A stretch of 64,000 nucleotides of DNA. It comes from an uncultured Acidimicrobiia bacterium (lineage in GTDB: Bacteria > Actinomycetota > Acidimicrobiia > Acidimicrobiales > AC-14). Within the stretch, counting starts at the first letter, position 1. Each line of letters starts with the position of its first letter. The notes under the pieces are model-generated. The model saw nothing but the letters and a program-made list of their open reading frames with translations, was not told the DNA's origin and searched no databases. Location: contig CAVYKB010000019.1 of NCBI GenBank assembly GCA_963768975.1, positions 198,688 to 262,687 of the forward strand. Direction: 5' to 3'. Shown here piece by piece: positions 9,258-42,000 of this stretch. The position numbers and the translations under genes are program-made.

Positions 9258-10889
<1,632 letters not shown>

Positions 10890-33274: not shown

Positions 33275-34369
33275 TCACCGTGACAGTCGCTCCAGTACCC
33301 CTCGCGCCAGGCGGGTCAAGGTCTCACAGCCGCCCGAACTGTGCGGCACGCTGGCGGCCACGAGGAAGCGCCGGCCCGTGCGCGACTGGATGAAGGCGAC
33401 GTCGAGGCAGTCCAACTCGGCGGCGTCGCCGGGCTTGGACCAGATCTTGGCGCCCGTCCCGAGGGCGCGGGTCACGGCCGGCGGGAGGAAGCCCTCGGCC
33501 TTTTGGAGGGCGGCGGAGAGCGCCTTCACGTCGGTGATGTCAAGGTCGAAGCGCTGCTCGGCGGGGATCTCCTCGTGCAGGACGATGCGGCGCACGGATT
33601 CGGCCATCTCGAAGAGGTTGGAGCAGTTTCCTTCGCACTCCGGAGTCCCCACGGCTTTGCGCACGGGCACGTAGGCCCGCCGCTCACCCTCTTCGAACAC
33701 CATCGCCGGCGACTCGTCGAAAGGGAGCCCGCCGTAGGAGCGGGAGATCGACGTGACTGGGAAGCCGTTCTTGGCGGTCAGGAACTCGTCGTTGAGGCGG
33801 TCGAGGCCGGCGATGCGGACCAGGAGGTCGTAGTCGTAGTTGGAGCTGTCCCGGATAGCCGGCTCATAGATGGACCGCAGCGTTTGCGAGGGCAGGCCGT
33901 CGTCGAAGGCGACCGTGGCCGCGCCGGTGAACCCCAGGGAGCGGGCCAGGTCGAGGGCTCCCAGGGCGGCGAGGACCTTGATCGACGACGCCGGCCAGAA
34001 GTCGCCGGCCAGCGCCCCGCCGCCGGCCTCGAACTGCTCGTAGATTCGGCCCTCGGGGCCCTCGATGACCCGTACGGCGTAGACGTTGGCGTCCTGCGGG
34101 ATCGGGTAGCCCTTGGCCTTGAGGTCGGCATCGAGGTTCACCGGTCGCGACGGCGGCCCCGACAGCGGCCCGAGGGAGGCCTCGCTGGTGGCCTGCTCGA
34201 TGTCGCTGGCCAGGTTCACGGTGCCCTTGGCGTTTCCGTCCACCGTGCGGATGGCCAGTGCCGCCGACGCCGCCGCCAGCAGGATCAGGATCAGCACGAC
34301 GTGCATGAAGAAGAGGCCGGGCGAGCGGCGGGGGTCCCGGCGACGCTTTCGGGCTACCGTGCCGGCCAT
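33275..34369 (-). CDS. membrane-anchored serine hydrolase related to class A beta-lactamases
   Basis: N-terminal signal-anchor RKRRRDPRRSPGLFFMHVVLILILLAAASAALAI, S-x-x-K motif ASSIKVL, SSN element and K-[PT]-G (WSKPGD). Confidence 0.6.
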   Translation of the reverse strand: MAGTVARKRRRDPRRSPGLFFMHVVLILILLAAASAALAIRTVDGNAKGTVNLASDIEQATSEASLGPLSGPPSRPVNLDADLKAKGYPIPQDANVYAVRVIEGPEGRIYEQFEAGGGALAGDFWPASSIKVLAALGALDLARSLGFTGAATVAFDDGLPSQTLRSIYEPAIRDSSNYDYDLLVRIAGLDRLNDEFLTAKNGFPVTSISRSYGGLPFDESPAMVFEEGERRAYVPVRKAVGTPECEGNCSNLFEMAESVRRIVLHEEIPAEQRFDLDITDVKALSAALQKAEGFLPPAVTRALGTGAKIWSKPGDAAELDCLDVAFIQSRTGRRFLVAASVPHSSGGCETLTRLARGVLERLSR

Positions 34370-34382
34370 CGAGTCGTCGTTC

Positions 34383-34769
34383 ATGTCGCTGGACTTCATC
34401 TACGTCCCCACCAGAGACGTCGACAGTACCGCCCGGCACTACACCGAGGTGCTCGGCGCGGACCTGCGGTGGAAGGTGCGGGGCATGGGCACGGTCGTGG
34501 CGTGCCTCACCTTGGCCGGCGAGGGGCCGGCGGTCCTCCTGTCTGGCCACCTCGAGGGCGAGATCCCGATCCTGGTCTACCGGGTGGCCGACTACACCGA
34601 AACGGTCGCAGGCTTGCGGGCGCGGGGCCTCACCGCCCTCCACGAGATCGAGATCCCCCATGGGCCACTGGCCAGCTTCGAGGCCGCCGGCGGCCAGCGC
34701 TTCGCCGTCTACGAGCTGACCCGCCCCGAGGCGGCCGGCAAGTTCGACGGCATCGTCGACGAGGCCTGA
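34383..34769 (+). CDS. VOC-family (glyoxalase/bleomycin-resistance fold) protein
   Basis: MSLDFIYVPTRDVDSTARHYTEVLGADL...FAVYE. 128 aa. Confidence 0.7.
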   Translation: MSLDFIYVPTRDVDSTARHYTEVLGADLRWKVRGMGTVVACLTLAGEGPAVLLSGHLEGEIPILVYRVADYTETVAGLRARGLTALHEIEIPHGPLASFEAAGGQRFAVYELTRPEAAGKFDGIVDEA

Positions 34770-34788: not shown

Positions 34789-34850
34789 GTTCACGCGAGT
34801 TCACACTGCGGCAACCGCCGGCACACACCTGGTTGCTTCACTTGGTTCAC
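34789..34850 (+). promoter_or_regulatory. four GTTCAC / CTTCAC hexamer repeats immediately upstream of nirB, a candidate nitrogen-regulator (GlnR-box-like gTnAc) binding region
   Basis: GTTCAC at 34789-34794 and 34799-34804 (4-nt spacer). CTTCACttgGTTCAC at 34836-34850 abuts the ATG at 34851. Confidence 0.3.
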
Positions 34851-37418
34851 ATGGCAGCACAGGAGGGCCGGCGCACGCTCGTCGTCGCCGGCAACGGCAT
34901 GGTCGGGCAGAAACTGCTCGAAATCCTCGTCGAGCGCGCCGCCACGGCCGAGTGGGACATCGTCACCTTCTGCGAGGAGGGCCGGCTCGCCTACGACCGG
35001 GTCGGCCTCAGCTCGTTCTTCAACGGGACGAGCGCGGAGGACCTGGGCCTGGTCCAGCCGGGGTTCTTCGACCAGAGCGGCCTGACCGTGCACGTGGGCG
35101 ACGCGGTGGCGTCGATCGACCGGACTGCGTCCACGGTGACCTCCACCGCCGGCCGGGTCATCCCCTATGACGCCCTGGTCCTGGCGACAGGATCGTTTCC
35201 ATTTGTTCCTCCCGTGCCGGGGAAGGACCTGGCCGGCTGCTTCGTCTACCGCACGCTGGACGATCTCGAGGCCATCCAGGCCTACGCCGCCGGCTGCCGG
35301 AGCGGGGCGGTCGTCGGCGGGGGGCTGCTGGGCCTGGAAGCGGCCAACGCCCTGCGCAGCCTGGGCCTCGAGACCCACGTCGTCGAGTTCGCCGAACGCC
35401 TCATGCCCGTCCAGGTCGACGAGGGCGGCGGCTCGGTCCTGCGCCGGCGCATCGAGGACCTGGGCGTGGGGGTCCACACCGGCATGGCCACCACCGAGAT
35501 CGCCGGCGACGAGCAAGTGACGGGCATGCGGTTCAAGGAGGGCGACGAGCTCCCCGTCGACCTCGTCGTCTTCTCCGCCGGCATCCGGCCCCGGGACCAA
35601 CTGGCTCGCGACGCGGGCCTGGCCGTGGGGGAGCGGGGCGGCGTGGTGGTCGACGACGCCTGCCGGACCTCGGACCCGAAGATCTTCGCCATCGGCGAGT
35701 GCGCCGTGTACGGGGGAAGGACCTTCGGCCTGGTGTCGCCCGGCTACCAGATGGCCGGGGTGGCGGCCGACCGCCTGCTGGGTGGCGACGCCGCCTTCAC
35801 CGGCGCCGACATGTCCACCAAGCTCAAGCTGATGGGCATCGACGTGGCCAGCTTCGGCGACGCCTTCGCCGCCGAGCCGGGCAACGAGGCCATCACCTAC
35901 TGCGACCCCGTAGCCAACCTCTACAAGAAGCTCGTCCTTGGTCCGCCCGACCGCCGGGGCTACCGCAAGGTGGCCGGCGGCATTCTCGTGGGCGACGCCA
36001 CCGTCTACCAGACCCTGCTCCAGATGTGCCGGGGCGGCATGCCCACCCCCCAGCACCCCGAGGAGCTGATCTTTCCGGCCCACTCCGGCACGCCGGCCAC
36101 CGCGGTGGGCGTGGCCGCCCTGCCCGAGACCGCGATGGTCTGCTCGTGCAACAACGTCGACAAGGGGACGATCTGCGCCGCGGTCTGCGGGGGCTGCGAC
36201 AGCGTCGCCGCCATCAAGACGATCACCAAGGCGGGTACCGGCTGCGGCGGCTGCGTGCCCCTGGTCACCGAGATCCTGCGCGACCAGCAGCGCAAGGCCG
36301 GCGTCGTCGTCATCAACACCCTGTGCGAGCACTTCGCCTACTCCCGCCAGGAGCTGTTCGACATCGTGCGGGTCCACCGGATCACGTCGTTCTCCGAGGT
36401 CCTCGCCACTCACGGCACCGGCGAGGGCTGTGAGATCTGCAAGCCGGCGGTGGCCTCGATGCTGGCGTCGCTGACCAACCGCTTCATCCTCGACGGCGAG
36501 CAGGCCGCTCTCCAGGACACCAACGACCACTTCCTGGCCAACCTCCAGCGCGACGGCACGTACTCGGTGGTGCCGCGGGTCCCGGGCGGGGAGATCACCC
36601 CCGATCAGCTCATCGCCATGGGCGAGGTGGCCAAGGAGTTCAACCTCTACACCAAGATCACCGGCGGCCAGCGCATCGACCTCTTCGGCGCCCGCGTGGA
36701 CCAGCTGCCCCACATCTGGCGCCGGCTGATCGACGCCGGCATGGAGTCCGGTCACGCCTACGGCAAGGCGCTGCGCACGGTGAAGTCCTGCGTGGGCCAG
36801 ACGTGGTGCCGTTACGGGGTCCAGGATTCGACCACTCTGGCCATCGACCTGGAGCTGCGCTACCGGGGTCTGCGGGCGCCCCACAAGATCAAGGGCGCGG
36901 TGTCGGGCTGCACCCGGGAATGCGCCGAGGCCCAGGGCAAGGACTTCGGCGTCATCGCCACCGAGCGGGGCTGGAACGTCTACGTCGGCGGCAACGGCGG
37001 TATGCGCCCCAAGCACGCCCAGCTCCTTGCCGCCGACCTCGACCGGGAGACCGTGTTCCGCTACCTCGACCGGTTCCTCATGTTCTATGTCCGCACCGCC
37101 GACCGCCTCGAGCGGACATCCGTGTGGCTGGACAAGCTGGAGGGGGGCATCGACTACCTCCGCAGCGTGGTCGTCGACGACGCCCTCGGCATCTGCGCCG
37201 ACCTGGAGGCCGACATGGCCCGCCACGTCGAGACCTACGAATGCGAGTGGAAGGCCGTCGTCGACGATCCCGAGCGCATGGAACGCTTCCGTACGTTCGT
37301 GAACTCCGACGACGCCGACCCCAACGTGGTCTTCGTCACCGAGCGGGGCCAGCCCCGGCCGGCGTACCGGCACGAGAAGCCCGATCCCGCCCTGCTGGCG
37401 ATCGGAGCGAAACCGTGA
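34851..37418 (+). CDS. nirB: assimilatory nitrite reductase [NAD(P)H] large subunit
   Basis: FAD/NAD Rossmann fold TLVVAGNGMVGQKLLE, BFD-like [2Fe-2S] Cys motifs, C-terminal sirohaem/4Fe-4S domain. 856 aa. Confidence 0.92.
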   Translation: MAAQEGRRTLVVAGNGMVGQKLLEILVERAATAEWDIVTFCEEGRLAYDRVGLSSFFNGTSAEDLGLVQPGFFDQSGLTVHVGDAVASIDRTASTVTSTAGRVIPYDALVLATGSFPFVPPVPGKDLAGCFVYRTLDDLEAIQAYAAGCRSGAVVGGGLLGLEAANALRSLGLETHVVEFAERLMPVQVDEGGGSVLRRRIEDLGVGVHTGMATTEIAGDEQVTGMRFKEGDELPVDLVVFSAGIRPRDQLARDAGLAVGERGGVVVDDACRTSDPKIFAIGECAVYGGRTFGLVSPGYQMAGVAADRLLGGDAAFTGADMSTKLKLMGIDVASFGDAFAAEPGNEAITYCDPVANLYKKLVLGPPDRRGYRKVAGGILVGDATVYQTLLQMCRGGMPTPQHPEELIFPAHSGTPATAVGVAALPETAMVCSCNNVDKGTICAAVCGGCDSVAAIKTITKAGTGCGGCVPLVTEILRDQQRKAGVVVINTLCEHFAYSRQELFDIVRVHRITSFSEVLATHGTGEGCEICKPAVASMLASLTNRFILDGEQAALQDTNDHFLANLQRDGTYSVVPRVPGGEITPDQLIAMGEVAKEFNLYTKITGGQRIDLFGARVDQLPHIWRRLIDAGMESGHAYGKALRTVKSCVGQTWCRYGVQDSTTLAIDLELRYRGLRAPHKIKGAVSGCTRECAEAQGKDFGVIATERGWNVYVGGNGGMRPKHAQLLAADLDRETVFRYLDRFLMFYVRTADRLERTSVWLDKLEGGIDYLRSVVVDDALGICADLEADMARHVETYECEWKAVVDDPERMERFRTFVNSDDADPNVVFVTERGQPRPAYRHEKPDPALLAIGAKP

Positions 37419-37420
37419 CG

Positions 37421-37756
37421 ATGCTCGTCTCCCGCACCTGGGTCGACGTCTGCCCGCTGGAGAAGCTCATCCCCGGGCGGGGTGTGTGCGCGCTGGTCGG
37501 CGGCCTGCAGGTCGCGGTGTTCCGTATCGCCGGCGAGGAGATCTACGCCATCTCCAACTTCGACCCCTTCAGCGGAGCCTTCGTCCTGTCGCGGGGGATC
37601 GTCGGGTCCAGGGCCGAACGGCTCAAGGTGGCGTCGCCCATCTACAAGCAGAGCTTCGACCTCGACACCGGCGTGTGCCTCGACGACGCCACTGTCTCGG
37701 TCCGCACGTTCGAGGTGAGCGTGGTCGAGGGCATGGTGCAGGTCGCGTCCCCTTGA
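37421..37756 (+). CDS. nirD: nitrite reductase small subunit (Rieske-like, NirD)
   Basis: About 112 aa, with VCALVGGLQVAVFRIAGEEIYAISNFDPFSGAFVLSRGIVGS typical of NirD. It starts 3 nt after the nirB stop. Confidence 0.85.
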   Translation: MLVSRTWVDVCPLEKLIPGRGVCALVGGLQVAVFRIAGEEIYAISNFDPFSGAFVLSRGIVGSRAERLKVASPIYKQSFDLDTGVCLDDATVSVRTFEVSVVEGMVQVASP

Positions 37757-39153
37757 GCACGACGCCGCTCGAGCGCTACCTGGCCGAGCAGGCGGATCTG
37801 GCGCCGGTTGAACGGTTCTCGCTGTGCGAAGTCCGCAGCACCGGGACTTGGGAGGATCGCATCCCCCTCACGGCTCCTTTGACCGGCCAGCAGTACGCCT
37901 TCGACGTCAACCTCGACACCTGCACCGGCTGCAAGGCCTGCGTCACCGCCTGCCACAACGTGAACGGCCTCGACGACGGCGAGTCCTACCGCACGGTGGG
38001 GCTGCTGACGGGGCCGACCTTCCAGCAGACCGTCACCACCGCCTGCCACCACTGCGTCGACCCCGCCTGCCTGAACGGCTGCCCGACGAACGCCTACGAG
38101 AAGGACGAGTTCAACGGGATCGTCGCCCACCTCGAGGGCCGGTGCCTGGGCTGCGGCTACTGCACCTGGACGTGCCCCTACGAGGTGCCCCGCTTCAACT
38201 CGGCACGCGGTGTCGTCCGCAAGTGCGACATGTGCCGCGACCGGCTGGGCGCCGGCGAGGAGCCGGCGTGCGTCTCGGCCTGTCCCAACGGCGCCATCAC
38301 CATCACCGTGGTCGACACCGCCGCCCTCGTCCACACCGCCCCGCTGGTGCCGACCGCCCCTCCGTCGGACATCACCCGGCCCACCACCAGCTACCACAGC
38401 GACTGGGGCCTGCCCGAGGGACTGGCGGCGGCCGGCGCCACCCTCGGCGGCGGAGGGCGCTCCCACGACCCTCTGGTGGCCATGCTGGTGCTCACCCAGG
38501 CGTCGGCCGGCGCCCTGGCCGTCGACCTGGCCACCGGCCACCGCCTGGCCACGACGACCGTCGCCGTGGTGCTGGCCCTCCTCGGGCTGGGCATCAGCAT
38601 CTTCCACCTCGGTCGCCCGGAGCGGGCCTGGCGCGCCCTCGCCGGCTGGCGGCACTCCTGGCTCAGCCGGGAGGTTGGCGCTCTTGGGCTCTTCGCCGGC
38701 CTGGCCATCCTCGCCGTGGCCACCGACTCGCCGCTCGTCCAGGCGGTCGCCGCGGCGGCGGGGGCGACCGGCGTGGCCTGCTCGGGCATGCTCTACGTCG
38801 TGACCCGCCGGCCCTCGTGGCGGGCCGGCGTGACCCTTCCCCGGTTCGCCCTCGGGTGGCTCGTCGGCGGAGCGGCCGTCGCGTTCGCCGCCGGCGGCGG
38901 ACGGGGCGCCGGCCTGGTCCTCGCCGGCGCGCTGGCCGCCAAGCTGGCCTGGGAGGCCCGCCTGGTGTGGCGGCCCGGCCCCGTCGTCGATGCCCCCGCC
39001 CGCTACGCCCTCGGGATAGCCGCCCTGTGCCTGGCCCTCACCGGCGCCGGCGCCGGCCTGGCCCTGGTGGCGGTCCTCGCCGGCGAGCTCATGGAGCGCA
39101 CCCGCTTCTTCACCACCGCCTCCTGGACGGGGATGCCGGGGCCGAAGACGTAG
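37753..39153 (+). CDS. fusion protein: a four-cluster 4Fe-4S ferredoxin-type subunit (DmsB/NrfC/NarH-like) joined to a polytopic membrane-anchor domain (DmsC/NrfD-like)
   Basis: Cluster motifs [38 protein letters not shown] and CDMCRDR...CVSACP. The C-terminal roughly 230 aa are hydrophobic with 6-8 predicted helices. No twin-arginine signal. TTG at 37753 overlaps the nirD stop (TTGA). Confidence 0.7.
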
Positions 39154-39161
39154 TGGCGAGC

Positions 39162-41304
39162 ATGGTCTGCGGGTTCTGCTCGGTGGGGTGCTCGCTCGAC
39201 GTCAACGTGAAGGACGGCGTCGCCGTCTCGCTGACACCCACCAAGGACTACCCGGTGAACCTGGGCATGGCCTGCCCCAAGGGGTGGGAGGCCCTGACGC
39301 CCCTGCGGGCACCGGACCGGGCCACCACCCCGCTCCTGCGGCGGGCGAAGGACCAGCCGCAGGAGCCGGTCGACTGGCCGACCGCCCTCGACGCCATGGT
39401 CAGCCGGTTCAAGGCCGTCCAGGCCGAGCACGGCCCCGAGTCGGTGGCGTTCCTCTCCACCGGCCAGATCGCCTCGGAGGAGATGGCCCTGCTCGGCGCG
39501 CTGGCCAAGTTCGGCATGGGCATGGTCCACGGCGACGGCAACACCCGCCAGTGCATGGCCACCGCCGTCGTCGCCTACAAGGAGGCGTTCGGCTTCGACG
39601 CCCCGCCGTACACCTACGCCGACCTCGAGGAGTCCGACGTCATCGTGCTGTGGGGGGCCAACCCCTGCATCGCCCACCCGATCCTGTGGGAGCGCATCTG
39701 CCGCAACCGCCACCACCCCGAGATCGTCGTCGTCGACCCCCGGGTGACCGAGACCGCGGCTGCCGCCACCCAGCACTACCCCCTCCTGCCCAAGTCCGAC
39801 CTCACCCTGGCCTACGGCCTGGCCCACCTGCTCATCGCCTGGGGTGCGGTCGACAAGGACTTCGTCGCCAGGTCGACCTCGGGGTTCGAGGGCTTCGCCG
39901 CCCACGTGGAGGCCTTCACCCCGGAGCGGGTCAGCGCCGCCACCCGCCTACCGGTGGACGCCCTGGAGCTCATGGCCGACACCATCGCCTCGGGGAAGCG
40001 GGTGTCGTTCTGGTGGACCATGGGCGTCAACCAGAGCCACGAAGGCACCCGCCTGGCTCAGGCCATCATCGCCATCGGCCCTGCTCACCGGGAACATCGG
40101 CCGGCCCGGGACCGGCGCCAACTCGATCACCGGGCAGTGCAACGCCATGGGCTCCCGCCTGTGGGCCAACTGCACCAACCTGCTCGGCGGTCGGGACTTC
40201 GCCGACCCTGCAGCGCGGGCGGAGGTCGCCGGGATACTCGGGATCGAGGAGTCCTGCATCCCCGACCGTGGCAGCTGGGCTTACGACCAGATCGTCGAGG
40301 CCATCCGTCACGGCACGATCAAAGCCCTCTGGGTGGTCGCCACCAACACCGCTCATTCGTGGATCGACCAGGATGACGTCCGCAACCTGCTGGGGCGCCT
40401 GGATGTGCTCGTCGTGCAGGATCTCTACCCGACCACGGAGACGGCTCAGCTGGCCGACATCGTCCTGCCCGCCGCCGGCTGGGGCGAGAAGGAGGGCACG
40501 TTCGTCAACTCCGAGCGCCGGTACGGGCGCATCCGCCGGGTGGTGCGGGCGCCGGGCCAGGCCCTCGCCGACTTCTCCATCTTCAAACTCGTGGCCGACG
40601 CCTGGGGGTGCGGCGAGATGTTCGAGGAGTGGTCCTCGCCGGAGGCGGTCTTCGGCATCCTCCAGCGCCTGAGCGCCGGCCGCCCCTGCGACATCACGGG
40701 GATCGGTGGCTACGAGGAGATCGAAGCGTCGGGCGGGATCCAATGGCCCGCGCCGGCACGCGCCGCCGGCGGGGCTGGGGCCCCCGCCGCCAGTGGCGGG
40801 CGTGGTCCGAAGGACCCGGGTGCCCGCCACCAGGAAACACGGCTGTTCGAGGACGGGCGCTTCTTCCACCCTGACGGGAGGGCGCGGTTCATCTGGGAGG
40901 AGCCCAGGCCCGTCGCCGAGCCCACGACCGAGGAGTTCCCGTTCATCCTGCTCACCGGGCGGGGCAGCTCCAGCCAGTGGCACACCCAGACCCGCACGTC
41001 GAAGTCGGCGATCCTCCGCACCCTCTACCCGGAGAAGCCGTACGTCGAGATCTCGCCGGCGGATGCCGCCGCCCTCGGCGTAGCCCCCGACGATTGGGTC
41101 CTCGTCGCCTCGGCCCGGGGCGAGATGGAGGCCCGGGCCTACGTGACGCCGACCGTCGCCCCCGGCCAGGTCTTCGTTCCCATGCACTACGCCGGCACCA
41201 ACCGCCTGACCCGGCCCAGCTTCGACCCGTACTCCCGCCAACCGTCGTACAAGTCGGCCGCCGTGGGTGTCCGACCAATAGCGGAGCGTCCTCGGTACAG
41301 TTAG
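39162..41304 (+). pseudogene. molybdopterin (bis-MGD) oxidoreductase catalytic subunit, NasA-like assimilatory nitrate reductase, split by a +1 frameshift at about 40079-40081
   Basis: N-terminal Fe-S motif [14 protein letters not shown]...GMACPKGW (C-x2-C-x3-C...C) and no Tat motif. Frame 0 reads ...[20 protein letters not shown]. It then continues in the +1 frame as [26 protein letters not shown]... through to the molybdopterin-binding C-terminus. An extra C in ggcCCTg breaks the frame. Confidence 0.65.
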
Positions 41305-41308
41305 CCGT

Positions 41309-41629
41309 GTGGCCCCCCGAGTCGCCGAGCACATCGTTCGGGGACGGCTGTTTGGTCCCGACCGCTTGCTGCGCGTCGACCTCCACGGAATCTCGGAGTT
41401 CGGTGCCGGCGACGAGCGCGCCCTCATCCGGTGGGAGTGGGTCGAGGCGGTCGCGGTGGAGCGGGGATCGGTCGTCGTCCGCGGTGCCGACGAGGCCATC
41501 GTGATGCCCTCGGGTGCCTTCGGCCTGACCACCGACGACCTGGCCGAGGAGCTCGAACGGGCCCGAGCCATCCACCACCGCTCCGACGTGATCGCCCGGC
41601 TGACCACCGACGCCGGCGACGACGAATGA
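41309..41629 (+). CDS. hypothetical protein (106 aa)
   Basis: Coding-like codon usage. Translationally coupled (ATGA) to the downstream membrane protein gene. Confidence 0.4.
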   Translation: MAPRVAEHIVRGRLFGPDRLLRVDLHGISEFGAGDERALIRWEWVEAVAVERGSVVVRGADEAIVMPSGAFGLTTDDLAEELERARAIHHRSDVIARLTTDAGDDE

Positions 41630-42000
41630 AGCTCCCTCGCCCGCCCCGGCCCTCGCCCCGCCAGCTCAGTGCCGCGCTGGCGATCCTCGGTCTGCTGGCC
41701 GGGCTGGCGTTCGTGCTCTTGCCTGTGGAAGCTTCCCTCGACGATGACCCCCTCCTCGGCCTGGTGCCCTTCTCGCCGGCTCTGGGCCAGGCCGTGGCCC
41801 GGGTCGACTGCGGGGCGCCGGTGACAAACTTCGGCCGGCGGTCGGACGACCTCAGCTTGGCCTCGCTGGCTCGCGACGGCGTCTGTCGCAACGCGGCGGC
41901 CAAGCGGGCGGCGACTGCGGTGGCGGCGGTGGCACTGGCCGGCGTCCTCGGCCTCATCACCTTCGCCGGGGCCCGCAATCGCGAACTGGCGGTGGCGTGA
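41626..42000 (+). CDS. hypothetical membrane protein (two TM helices flanking a Cys-containing loop)
   Basis: [34 protein letters not shown]... [21 protein letters not shown]. Overlaps on both sides (ATGA / GTGA). Confidence 0.45.

Follow-up and report, generated by a model that had tools for sequence, protein, structure and literature searches.

Nitrate assimilation in bacteria is usually described with soluble enzymes that draw their electrons from NADH, NADPH, ferredoxin or flavodoxin. The locus analyzed here departs from that description by placing a gene for a catalytic subunit related to those enzymes directly after a gene for a fused iron-sulfur and membrane-anchor protein, hereafter the BC fusion. 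It lies in a stretch of 64,000 nucleotides, referred to as the window, from contig CAVYKB010000019.1 of the uncultured Acidimicrobiia bacterium represented by assembly GCA_963768975.1. The pair occupies positions 37753 to 41304 of the window, and its second member is a molybdenum-bis(pyranopterin guanine dinucleotide) (Mo-bisPGD) enzyme, hereafter the Mo subunit. The reading favored on sequence grounds, and held with somewhat better than even confidence, is that the two proteins constitute a widespread, uncharacterized menaquinol:nitrate oxidoreductase for assimilation, in which three modules on two polypeptides would face the cytoplasm. The architecture itself is that of a widespread family and not a rarity of the source genome.

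The closest described systems are complex iron-sulfur molybdoenzymes with anchors of the NrfD type. In that family the catalytic (A) and four-cluster (B) subunits are typically exported by the twin-arginine translocation (Tat) pathway, the exception being SoeABC, for which a cytoplasm-facing arrangement on an inverted anchor has been proposed (PMC8076601). The quinone site of Escherichia coli DmsC comprises S62, H65, S82, and E87; replacement of His65 blocks quinol oxidation, mutational studies found Glu87 to be important for quinol coordination, and the quinone site of SoeC is likewise listed with His65 and Glu87 (PMC8076601). The locus in the window shares with E. coli DmsABC a four-cluster DmsB-type subunit, a haem-less anchor of eight transmembrane (TM) helices of the DmsC type (PF04976), the quinol-site residues, and the B-then-C order. 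It differs in that B and C, separate there, are fused here; in that no partner carries a Tat signal and the charge bias of the membrane loops is reversed, predicting an inverted orientation; and in that the catalytic subunit is of the Nap/Nas type, is 22% identical to DmsA, and is encoded after the BC gene instead of before it. Two features typical of DmsABC and PsrABC, namely Tat export of A and B and separate B and C polypeptides, are therefore missing. SoeABC (Allochromatium vinosum, Aquifex aeolicus), compared here by its published description, is the closest system in architecture; a quinone site on the cytoplasmic (N) side and an inverted anchor are proposed for it, and its A and B subunits have no export signals. 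Nevertheless, SoeB and SoeC are separate proteins, and SoeA belongs to the Psr/Phs branch and oxidizes sulfite, passing the electrons to quinone, whereas the enzyme described here has a Nap/Nas-type catalytic subunit and a predicted flow from quinol to substrate.

With regard to nitrate reductases proper, the Mo subunit resembles the soluble NasA, NasC, NarB, and NasN enzymes in being a cytoplasmic Mo-bisPGD protein with an N-terminal [4Fe-4S] cluster and a Cys-Met active-site motif, in falling within the Nap/Nas super-clade, and in clustering with nirBD and nitrate transporter genes. Unlike them, the family forms a separate clade at 35-38% identity, has neither the C-terminal 2Fe-2S nor the diflavin extensions, and has as its partner a membrane module of the quinol type where theirs is ferredoxin, flavodoxin, or an NAD(P)H reductase. 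NarGHI is best regarded as a functional analog, being membrane-bound with a cytoplasmic active site, a quinol donor (predicted for the present family), a four-cluster subunit, and the capacity to feed NirBD. However, NarI is a dihaem cytochrome b and NarG an Asp-ligated protein of ~1200 aa, as opposed to a DmsC-type anchor and a Cys-ligated subunit of ~715 aa here; Nar also runs an electrogenic redox loop, none of which is expected here, and the likeness to NarH is weak and generic to four-cluster proteins. The original prediction had spoken of a minimal Nar-like architecture of three modules, and of this description the three modules stand while the Nar-like ancestry does not: the Mo subunit has no NarG match, the anchor is not of the NarI type, and NarH scores only 49 bits, so that the arrangement is better described as of the DmsABC/SoeABC type with a Nap/Nas-type catalytic subunit. 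The best solved relative, the monomeric NapA of Desulfovibrio desulfuricans (PDB 2NAP/2JIM), aligns at its Cys140-Met141 motif but is exported by Tat to the periplasm, is respiratory, and has no DmsBC-type partner.

The window has a G+C content of ~72%, which fills raw lists of open reading frames (ORFs) with spurious frames; the true frames were accordingly picked from a plot of G+C at third codon positions (GC3) and then examined through translations and Pfam and NCBIfam scans. Four co-directional genes resulted, all on the + strand. The first, nirB (34833-37418), encodes the 861-aa large subunit of NAD(P)H nitrite reductase from a TTG start, with Pyr_redox_2, Fer2_BFD, and NIR_SIR domains and scores above cutoff for NF011565 (1207 bits) and TIGR02374 (1091 bits). 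The Rieske-like small subunit is encoded by nirD (37415-37756; PF13806, 137 bits; TIGR02378, 116 bits, above cutoff), whose GTG start overlaps the nirB stop in GTGA and for which an alternative ATG lies at 37421. The BC fusion gene (37753-39153) starts with TTG and encodes a 466-aa protein with Fer4_11 and PF04976 domains, identical to a 466-aa protein in a public collection (P0121). The Mo gene begins at a GTG at 39153 that overlaps the BC stop by 1 nt, with an alternative ATG at 39162. Its 5' part (39153-40077) encodes the Fe4S4 motif CxxCxxxC...C and the Mo-ligand Cys (codon 39552-39554) within 'TRQCMATAV'; its 3' part (40079-41304), in the +1 frame, encodes the C-terminal part of the Molybdopterin domain and the Molydop_binding domain. 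The junctions GTGA, TTGA, and TAGTG amount to overlaps of 1-4 nt. Both the gene order with its short overlaps and the start and end at 37753 and 41304 thus agree exactly with what had been predicted.

The BC protein consists, in order, of an N-terminal extension, a four-cluster ferredoxin domain of the DmsB type, a linker, and a DmsC-type anchor with eight TM helices. The ferredoxin domain (residues ~46-190, positions 37888-38322) contains four ferredoxin-type motifs whose 16 Cys (57, 60, 63, 67, 98, 101, 106, 110, 131, 134, 137, 141, 158, 161, 173, and 177) are all invariant in an alignment of 65 homologs. Its best NCBIfam match is TIGR02951 (DMSO_dmsB; 124 bits, below cutoff), annotated DmsB proteins are its closest relatives at 36-41% identity, and a Foldseek comparison pairs the N-terminal half with PsrB (2vpw_B; TMt 0.70) and FdnH (1kqf_B). 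The membrane domain (residues 238-466, positions 38464-39150) matches PF04976 at 38 bits against a cutoff of 22, and the folds that Foldseek recovered for the C-terminal half are those of PsrC, from the crystal structure that also supplied the PsrB match (2vpw_C; TMt 0.63), and of the alternative complex III protein ActC. The AlphaFold model (AF2) of the whole protein (predicted local distance difference test score (pLDDT) 78.5; predicted template modeling score (pTM) 0.79) places eight TM helices between 239-261 and 434-454, with pLDDT above 90 across the membrane domain. The DmsB- and DmsC-type matches, the PsrB and PsrC folds, and a match in Salmonella that runs collinearly from dmsB into dmsC mark the protein as a true fusion of the DmsBC type, as had been proposed. 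Homologs are likewise single ORFs, of 430-580 aa in all relatives, and among 72,556 plasmids no fused BC gene was present, only separate dmsB and dmsC genes. The N-terminal extension of ~45 residues (37753-37887) carries neither a Tat motif nor a hydrophobic h-region, and the E. coli DmsB start aligns at BC residue ~46, after it. In the 65-sequence alignment P38 and P42 of the extension are invariant and R21/F22 are at least 90% conserved; AF2 confidence is low across it, and its role may be to dock the Mo subunit.

Within the anchor, the loop that follows TM2 (38605-38673) aligns to the quinone-site region of E. coli DmsC, which reads MLHLGSPMRAFNSLNRVGASALSNEI. Residues S282, H285 (codon 38605-38607), S302, and E307 (codon 38671-38673) correspond to DmsC S62, H65, S82, and E87, respectively. 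Across all of the phyla sampled, no family sequence departs from H285, S302, or E307 (73/73), and S282 is retained in 72/73, so that this loop is put forward as the predicted quinol site. Other conserved polar residues of the membrane domain are E445, R449, Y348, and W356. As the domain has only two invariant His, both on one face, a dihaem site like that of NarI is excluded.

The orientation of the anchor was assessed from the charges of its loops with AF2 helix boundaries. Lys and Arg together average 12.4 in the loops on the iron-sulfur side against 1.0 on the other side, in the same direction in 73/73 sequences, whereas in E. coli DmsC, whose partners are periplasmic, the bias at the homologous loops is reversed (2 vs 5). 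By the positive-inside rule, these charges place the iron-sulfur domain and the quinol-site loop in the cytoplasm and the anchor inverted relative to DmsC, with the N-terminus inside. Export signals of the Tat or Sec type are lacking on both partners, in keeping with the original prediction. A regular-expression scan found an RRxF-like Tat motif in 0/73 BC N-termini, which also have no h-region; the window Mo protein starts at most five residues before the Cys motif of the Fe4S4 domain, leaving no room for a Tat signal; and none was seen upstream in frame of the Mo gene at the ~70 loci inspected. Most Mo proteins from outside Acidimicrobiales carry a conserved N-terminal extension of ~40 aa ('GPLTRELLxxPGxFGLGxVPxxxKPDxTT'). 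A missed Tat signal was considered and ruled out, since this extension has neither an RR motif nor a hydrophobic core and the BC N-termini are negative. In its own right, the extension stands directly before the Fe4S4 motif in loci L018 (~10650-10805), L078, L045, L070, and most other loci from outside Acidimicrobiales (L numbers designate loci of the genome scan described below), and it is absent from the subclade of the window, including the four members inspected (L001, L007, L013, and L097).

The Mo subunit (~715 aa) has the Pfam domains Molybdop_Fe4S4, Molybdopterin, and Molydop_binding. The ligands of its [4Fe-4S] cluster (FS0) are Cys 7, 10, 14, and 42 of a 717-aa reconstruction numbered from 39150, and the Mo-ligand region 'TRQCMATAV' recurs in all 10 family members aligned, with Cys-Met as in Nap and Nas enzymes and unlike the Sec/Cys-His (Sec, selenocysteine) of FdhF and FdnG. 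Among solved structures, D. desulfuricans NapA is the best match (346 bits over the full length, with the Cys140 motif aligned), compared with 108 bits for PsrA (2vpw_A); affinity to the Psr/Phs branch of SoeA is also low in NCBIfam, where PhsA scores only 158 bits. Searches with tblastn against annotated plasmid genes gave 35-37% identity to NasA (Ralstonia), NasC (Paracoccus), a NarB-like protein (Sinorhizobium), and NasN (Mycobacterium), 27-32% to FdhF, and 28-32% to NapA. On trimmed alignment columns the identity to annotated Nas proteins is ~38%, and over both comparisons that to FdhF spans 27-34%. A neighbor-joining tree of 22 sequences (686 trimmed columns, rooted on DmsA, 300 rooted bootstraps) placed the Mo subunit within Nap plus Nas in 299/300 replicates and never with the formate dehydrogenase FdhF, which answers the phylogenetic check that had been suggested for it. 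The BC-paired enzymes are monophyletic (295/300) and form a distinct clade outside the classical Nas group, joining NapA in 74/300 and classical Nas in 77/300 replicates. The sister of the BC-paired clade (300/300), which is also its nearest Mo-enzyme relative, is an unpaired enzyme, 40% identical, encoded at L088 6001-9013 on Cetobacterium somerae plasmid NZ_CP092520.1; its gene lacks a BC partner and is followed by one for a SLAC1/TehA-like anion channel, with mobB and moeA near. This arrangement may represent another uncharacterized nitrate or oxyanion reductase.

When one genome per GTDB species was scanned, at least 584 candidate loci came up, of which the best 80 were kept, nearly all of them full-length on the query. 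Carriers include Acidimicrobiales and other Actinomycetota, Acidobacteriota, Myxococcota (among them nine complete Sorangium chromosomes), Planctomycetota, Verrucomicrobiota, and Poribacteria, that is, at least six phyla. Wherever 1 kb or more of sequence was available downstream (73/73 loci), a Mo gene of the same clade lies directly 3' of the BC gene on the same strand, and the paired Mo enzymes are 58-90% identical to that of the window; the pairing is obligate. The search for the fusion beside nasA and nirBD in related genomes that had been called for was therefore positive, most pairs lying near nirBD, other nitrite reductase genes, or nitrate transporter genes. It had also been asked whether the fusion was already a commonly annotated Nas component, and the answer is divided. 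JGI and NCBI pipelines often name the Mo subunit 'assimilatory nitrate reductase catalytic subunit' or 'nitrate reductase', whereas the BC partner is labeled 'formate dehydrogenase iron-sulfur subunit' (JGI) or 'DmsC/YnfH family anchor', which is a mislabeling.

The neighboring genes vary by phylum, while the function that they point to, nitrate assimilation, is constant. NirB lies within 9 kb in 27 of the 42 fully flanked loci, often with NirD and sometimes fused to it. Transporters of the NarK family (major facilitator superfamily, MFS), scoring 307-318 bits where the cutoff is 311.7, adjoin the pair in Planctomycetota, Poribacteria, and Microthrixaceae. The place of NirBD is taken in Verrucomicrobiota by a NirA-family haemoprotein (716 bits, above cutoff) together with a CysJ-like flavoprotein, and genes of the NarK or NrtA/B kind lie near; an actinobacterial contig (L082) has narK and an NnaR-like regulator of the HemD plus OmpR type, the role of NnaR having been described (PMC11162112); and an Amt ammonium transporter gene is adjacent in the Poribacteria locus L045. 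Several further details of these neighborhoods may be recorded. In loci of the Verrucomicrobiota type, CysJ-like diflavin and NirA-family sirohaem genes flank the pair (L056 5497-8980, L009 12757-16280, L069 7193-8950, and L077 6711-8903), an arrangement that suggests a nitrite reductase of two subunits on the CysJI plan, dependent on NADPH. A single protein of ~1020-1040 aa (Pfam Pyr_redox_2 ... NIR_SIR ... Rieske_2) combines NirB with NirD at L078 12954-16007 (Planctomycetota), and an ORF of similar length occupies L045 3586-6711 (Poribacteria). A fusion of a protein phosphatase 2C (PP2C) with a Ser/Thr kinase, a possible regulator, is encoded beside the nitrate-assimilation genes at L056 3866-5500 and L070 3765-5396 (Verrucomicrobiota).

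In the mechanism proposed for the two proteins, which would form a complex, the DmsC-type domain would oxidize (mena)quinol at the cytoplasmic face with the participation of His285, Glu307, Ser282, and Ser302, and the electrons would travel along the fused DmsB-type domain, by way of its four [4Fe-4S] clusters, to FS0 and on to the Mo-bisPGD of the NasA-like subunit, where nitrate would be reduced to nitrite. NirBD (NirA/CysJ elsewhere) would then reduce nitrite to ammonium for assimilation, and the assimilation of nitrate would be tied to the respiratory quinone pool instead of NAD(P)H, ferredoxin, or flavodoxin. Because the protons of quinol would be released, and those of nitrate reduction consumed, on the same cytoplasmic side, the step is expected to be non-electrogenic. 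The carrier phyla are, as far as is known, menaquinone users. Menaquinol, at approximately -74 mV, is an easy donor to the nitrate/nitrite couple. The potential of that couple is cited as +433 mV in a passage of PMC10100899, and a precedent for quinol-linked nitrate assimilation, M. tuberculosis NarGHJI with NirBD, is given in a passage of PMC11162112 that cites Malm et al. (2009). The quinol-driven, membrane-tethered assimilatory nitrate reductase that the original prediction had offered as a possibility is supported to this extent, both the dependence on quinol and the nitrate reductase activity being predicted from sequence.

Despite the agreement of these lines of evidence, several observations weigh against the proposed assignment, and rival readings have to be set beside it. 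The support for every family member comes from sequence inference. All NCBIfam scores of the Mo subunit lie below the equivalog cutoffs, with 462 against 1000 bits for NasA_Halo (NF041323), 390 against 1100 for NasC (NF047855), and 310 for NapA; as the subunit also forms a deep clade of its own, the assignment of its substrate rests on motif, tree, and context. The AF2 model is moderately confident for the Fe-S domain (pLDDT 60-80), and in 15 of the 42 fully flanked loci tblastn detected no NirB and none of the MFS transporters probed, although the three of these examined singly (two from Verrucomicrobiota and the unclassified metagenome-assembled genome (MAG) L009) have other nitrite reductases, NirA- or CysJ-like. 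A cytoplasm-facing oxidoreductase that passes electrons from formate, or another substrate, to quinone, with only incidental proximity to nirBD, could explain why Fdh-alpha scores 460 bits, about as high as NasA_Halo, and why JGI names refer BC to formate dehydrogenase and often call the Mo subunit an 'anaerobic selenocysteine-containing dehydrogenase'; it is nonetheless very improbable, and a formate dehydrogenase identity was rejected, given the Cys-Met active site in place of Sec/Cys-His, the 0/300 bootstraps with FdhF, the nitrate/nitrite synteny kept across phyla, and a score short of the Fdh cutoff of 666. The BC protein could also be a membrane tether and electron wire devoid of quinol activity, which would hold the reductase beside a nitrate transporter while a soluble donor (NirB/NirD, ferredoxin, or a CysJ-like flavoprotein) supplies the electrons. 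Classical Nas enzymes use soluble donors, the Ralstonia nasA being preceded by a gene for a Pyr_redox_2 reductase, and NirBD or CysJ-like reductases are encoded beside the pair in many loci. In Paracoccus, NasB and NasG, which are homologous to NirB and NirD, feed NasC, and by this parallel an NADH route through the adjacent NirBD, an NADH-oxidizing flavoprotein with a Rieske protein, is conceivable and counts against quinol as the donor; no dedicated NasB-like reductase was found in the window. The constant partner of the Mo subunit is the membrane BC fusion, although NirBD could in principle donate electrons. The fusion persists while the type of neighboring reductase varies, and quinone-site and other polar TM residues conserved over six phyla are hard to explain for a passive anchor, so that a mere tether is judged unlikely. 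A third reading retains the flow from quinol to nitrate at the cytoplasmic face and makes its main role dissimilatory, as a stand-in for Nar in nitrate respiration, redox balancing, or NirBD-linked ammonification at low oxygen. DmsBC-type modules are otherwise found in respiratory enzymes (PMC8076601), a passage of PMC12830290 ascribes dissimilatory and detoxifying roles to NirBD as well, and energy would be conserved over the whole path if the quinol received its electrons from a coupling NADH dehydrogenase. With the quinol site and the active site on the same side, however, no redox loop is expected; the neighbors are of the assimilation type (NnaR-like regulator, NarK/Nrt uptake, NirA/CysJ-type nitrite reductase, Amt), and the loci showed neither a NarK2-type exporter nor narJ nor a setting for nitrite extrusion, which leaves a chiefly dissimilatory role with a low probability, similar to that of the tether.

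A separate question concerns the source genome, in which the Mo gene is frameshifted, and no claim on activity in that organism is accordingly made. One extra base lies in ATCGGCCCTG (40075-40079, + strand), as indicated by the GC3 frame switch, by relatives, and by comparison with L097; removal of one G restores a conserved stretch of 16 residues, and none of the six relatives compared has the extra base, five being one base shorter at the same spot and the sixth being L097. The latter is the closest relative found (BC protein 96% identical; DNA 91% over 4.2 kb) and has an intact Mo gene of 693 aa, the sole out-of-frame difference from the window being at 40078 and the other indels totaling 60 nt in a Gly/Ala-rich loop. 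The coding signal continues in the shifted frame with a GC3 of 0.87-0.95, and the 3' part is 80% identical to the L085 ortholog. A single extra base, intact relatives, and coding signal on both sides point to a very recent inactivation or a local assembly error. That the cluster is a decaying pseudogene locus, its architecture now without function in the source organism, is the less probable of these readings but a substantial one, and its likelihood stands independently of those given to the rivals above. The one-base insertion at ~40078 splits the gene, and, since no other gene is split among the ~21 compared in synteny with L085, indels are not a general feature of the assembly. On the other hand, there is only one lesion, GC3 of 0.87-0.95 and protein identities of 80-91% continue on both sides of it, nirB, nirD, and the BC gene are intact, orthologs at 91% DNA identity are intact, and the indel falls in a G/C run (GGCCC), a type of site prone to assembly errors. 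Two related details may be added. At 40753-40839 the window Mo gene has ~60 extra in-frame bases relative to L097, which encode a Gly/Ala/Pro-rich stretch that is probably a variable surface loop. The Mo gene at L009 10557-12760 (an uncultured-bacterium MAG) also appears split, into two tblastn pieces that overlap at query residues 563-571, and may represent a second, independent frameshift or assembly error.

Beyond these four genes, the cluster in the window comprises two small ORFs without family assignment whose membership is uncertain, both on the + strand: orfA (41309-41629; 106 aa; no match in the Pfam scan), a possible accessory gene, and orfB (41626-42000; 124 aa), which has two hydrophobic segments and a start that overlaps the orfA stop (ATGA). 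Only in L001, L085, L007, L013, and L097, all from Acidimicrobiales, does orfA lie directly 3' of the Mo gene, and orfB is kept in the same loci; the two may encode accessory or maturation factors or a split-off counterpart of the ~40-aa N-terminal extension of other Mo proteins. Two conserved genes without Pfam matches lie just 5' of nirB (33281-34324, - strand, ~350 aa; 34359-34763, + strand, ~135 aa) and are also kept in the syntenic contig L085, in which they are separated from nirB by an inserted VapBC toxin-antitoxin pair. In the flanks of the window neither nitrate transporter nor sirohaem genes occur; their content is limited to an amino-acid ABC transporter and genes without relation to the system.

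The proposed system would be built wholly from familiar modules, and what appears new is their combination, a fused and inverted DmsBC-type module with a Nap/Nas-type catalytic subunit. Searches of open-access full text found no Nas described as membrane-anchored or as linked to DmsC/NrfD; the review of the NrfD family (PMC8076601) and two phylogenies of the DMSO reductase superfamily contain no such Nas, and the review describes no B-C fusion. By a slight margin, the balance of evidence favors an unrecognized and phylogenetically broad class of assimilatory nitrate reductase, in which an inverted DmsB-DmsC fusion connects a NasA-like enzyme with the pool of menaquinol. Given that cultured, genome-sequenced carriers with intact genes exist, such as Sorangium cellulosum So0157-2 (L021), Adhaeretor mobilis HG15A2 (L078), and Verrucomicrobium sp. 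BvORR034 (L070), the hypothesis is directly testable.

If borne out, the system would be the first case of an NrfD-type anchor in nitrogen assimilation and only the second in which a member of this anchor family faces the cytoplasm, and would offer a natural B-C fusion and a second inverted example for work on quinol binding and orientation in NrfD/DmsC anchors. It would also correct a systematic mis-annotation of the anchor as a formate dehydrogenase or DMSO reductase subunit and provide a new class of partner for marker-gene surveys based on nasA. If the NrfD-like domain conducts protons, as has been proposed for alternative complex III and for Qrc, the step might couple to the membrane potential. 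Finally, the carrier phyla are abundant in soil, freshwater, marine, and sponge-associated settings, and their nitrate assimilation would, on the favored reading, be fed by the respiratory chain instead of NAD(P)H or ferredoxin, which would change the energy and redox bookkeeping of these organisms.

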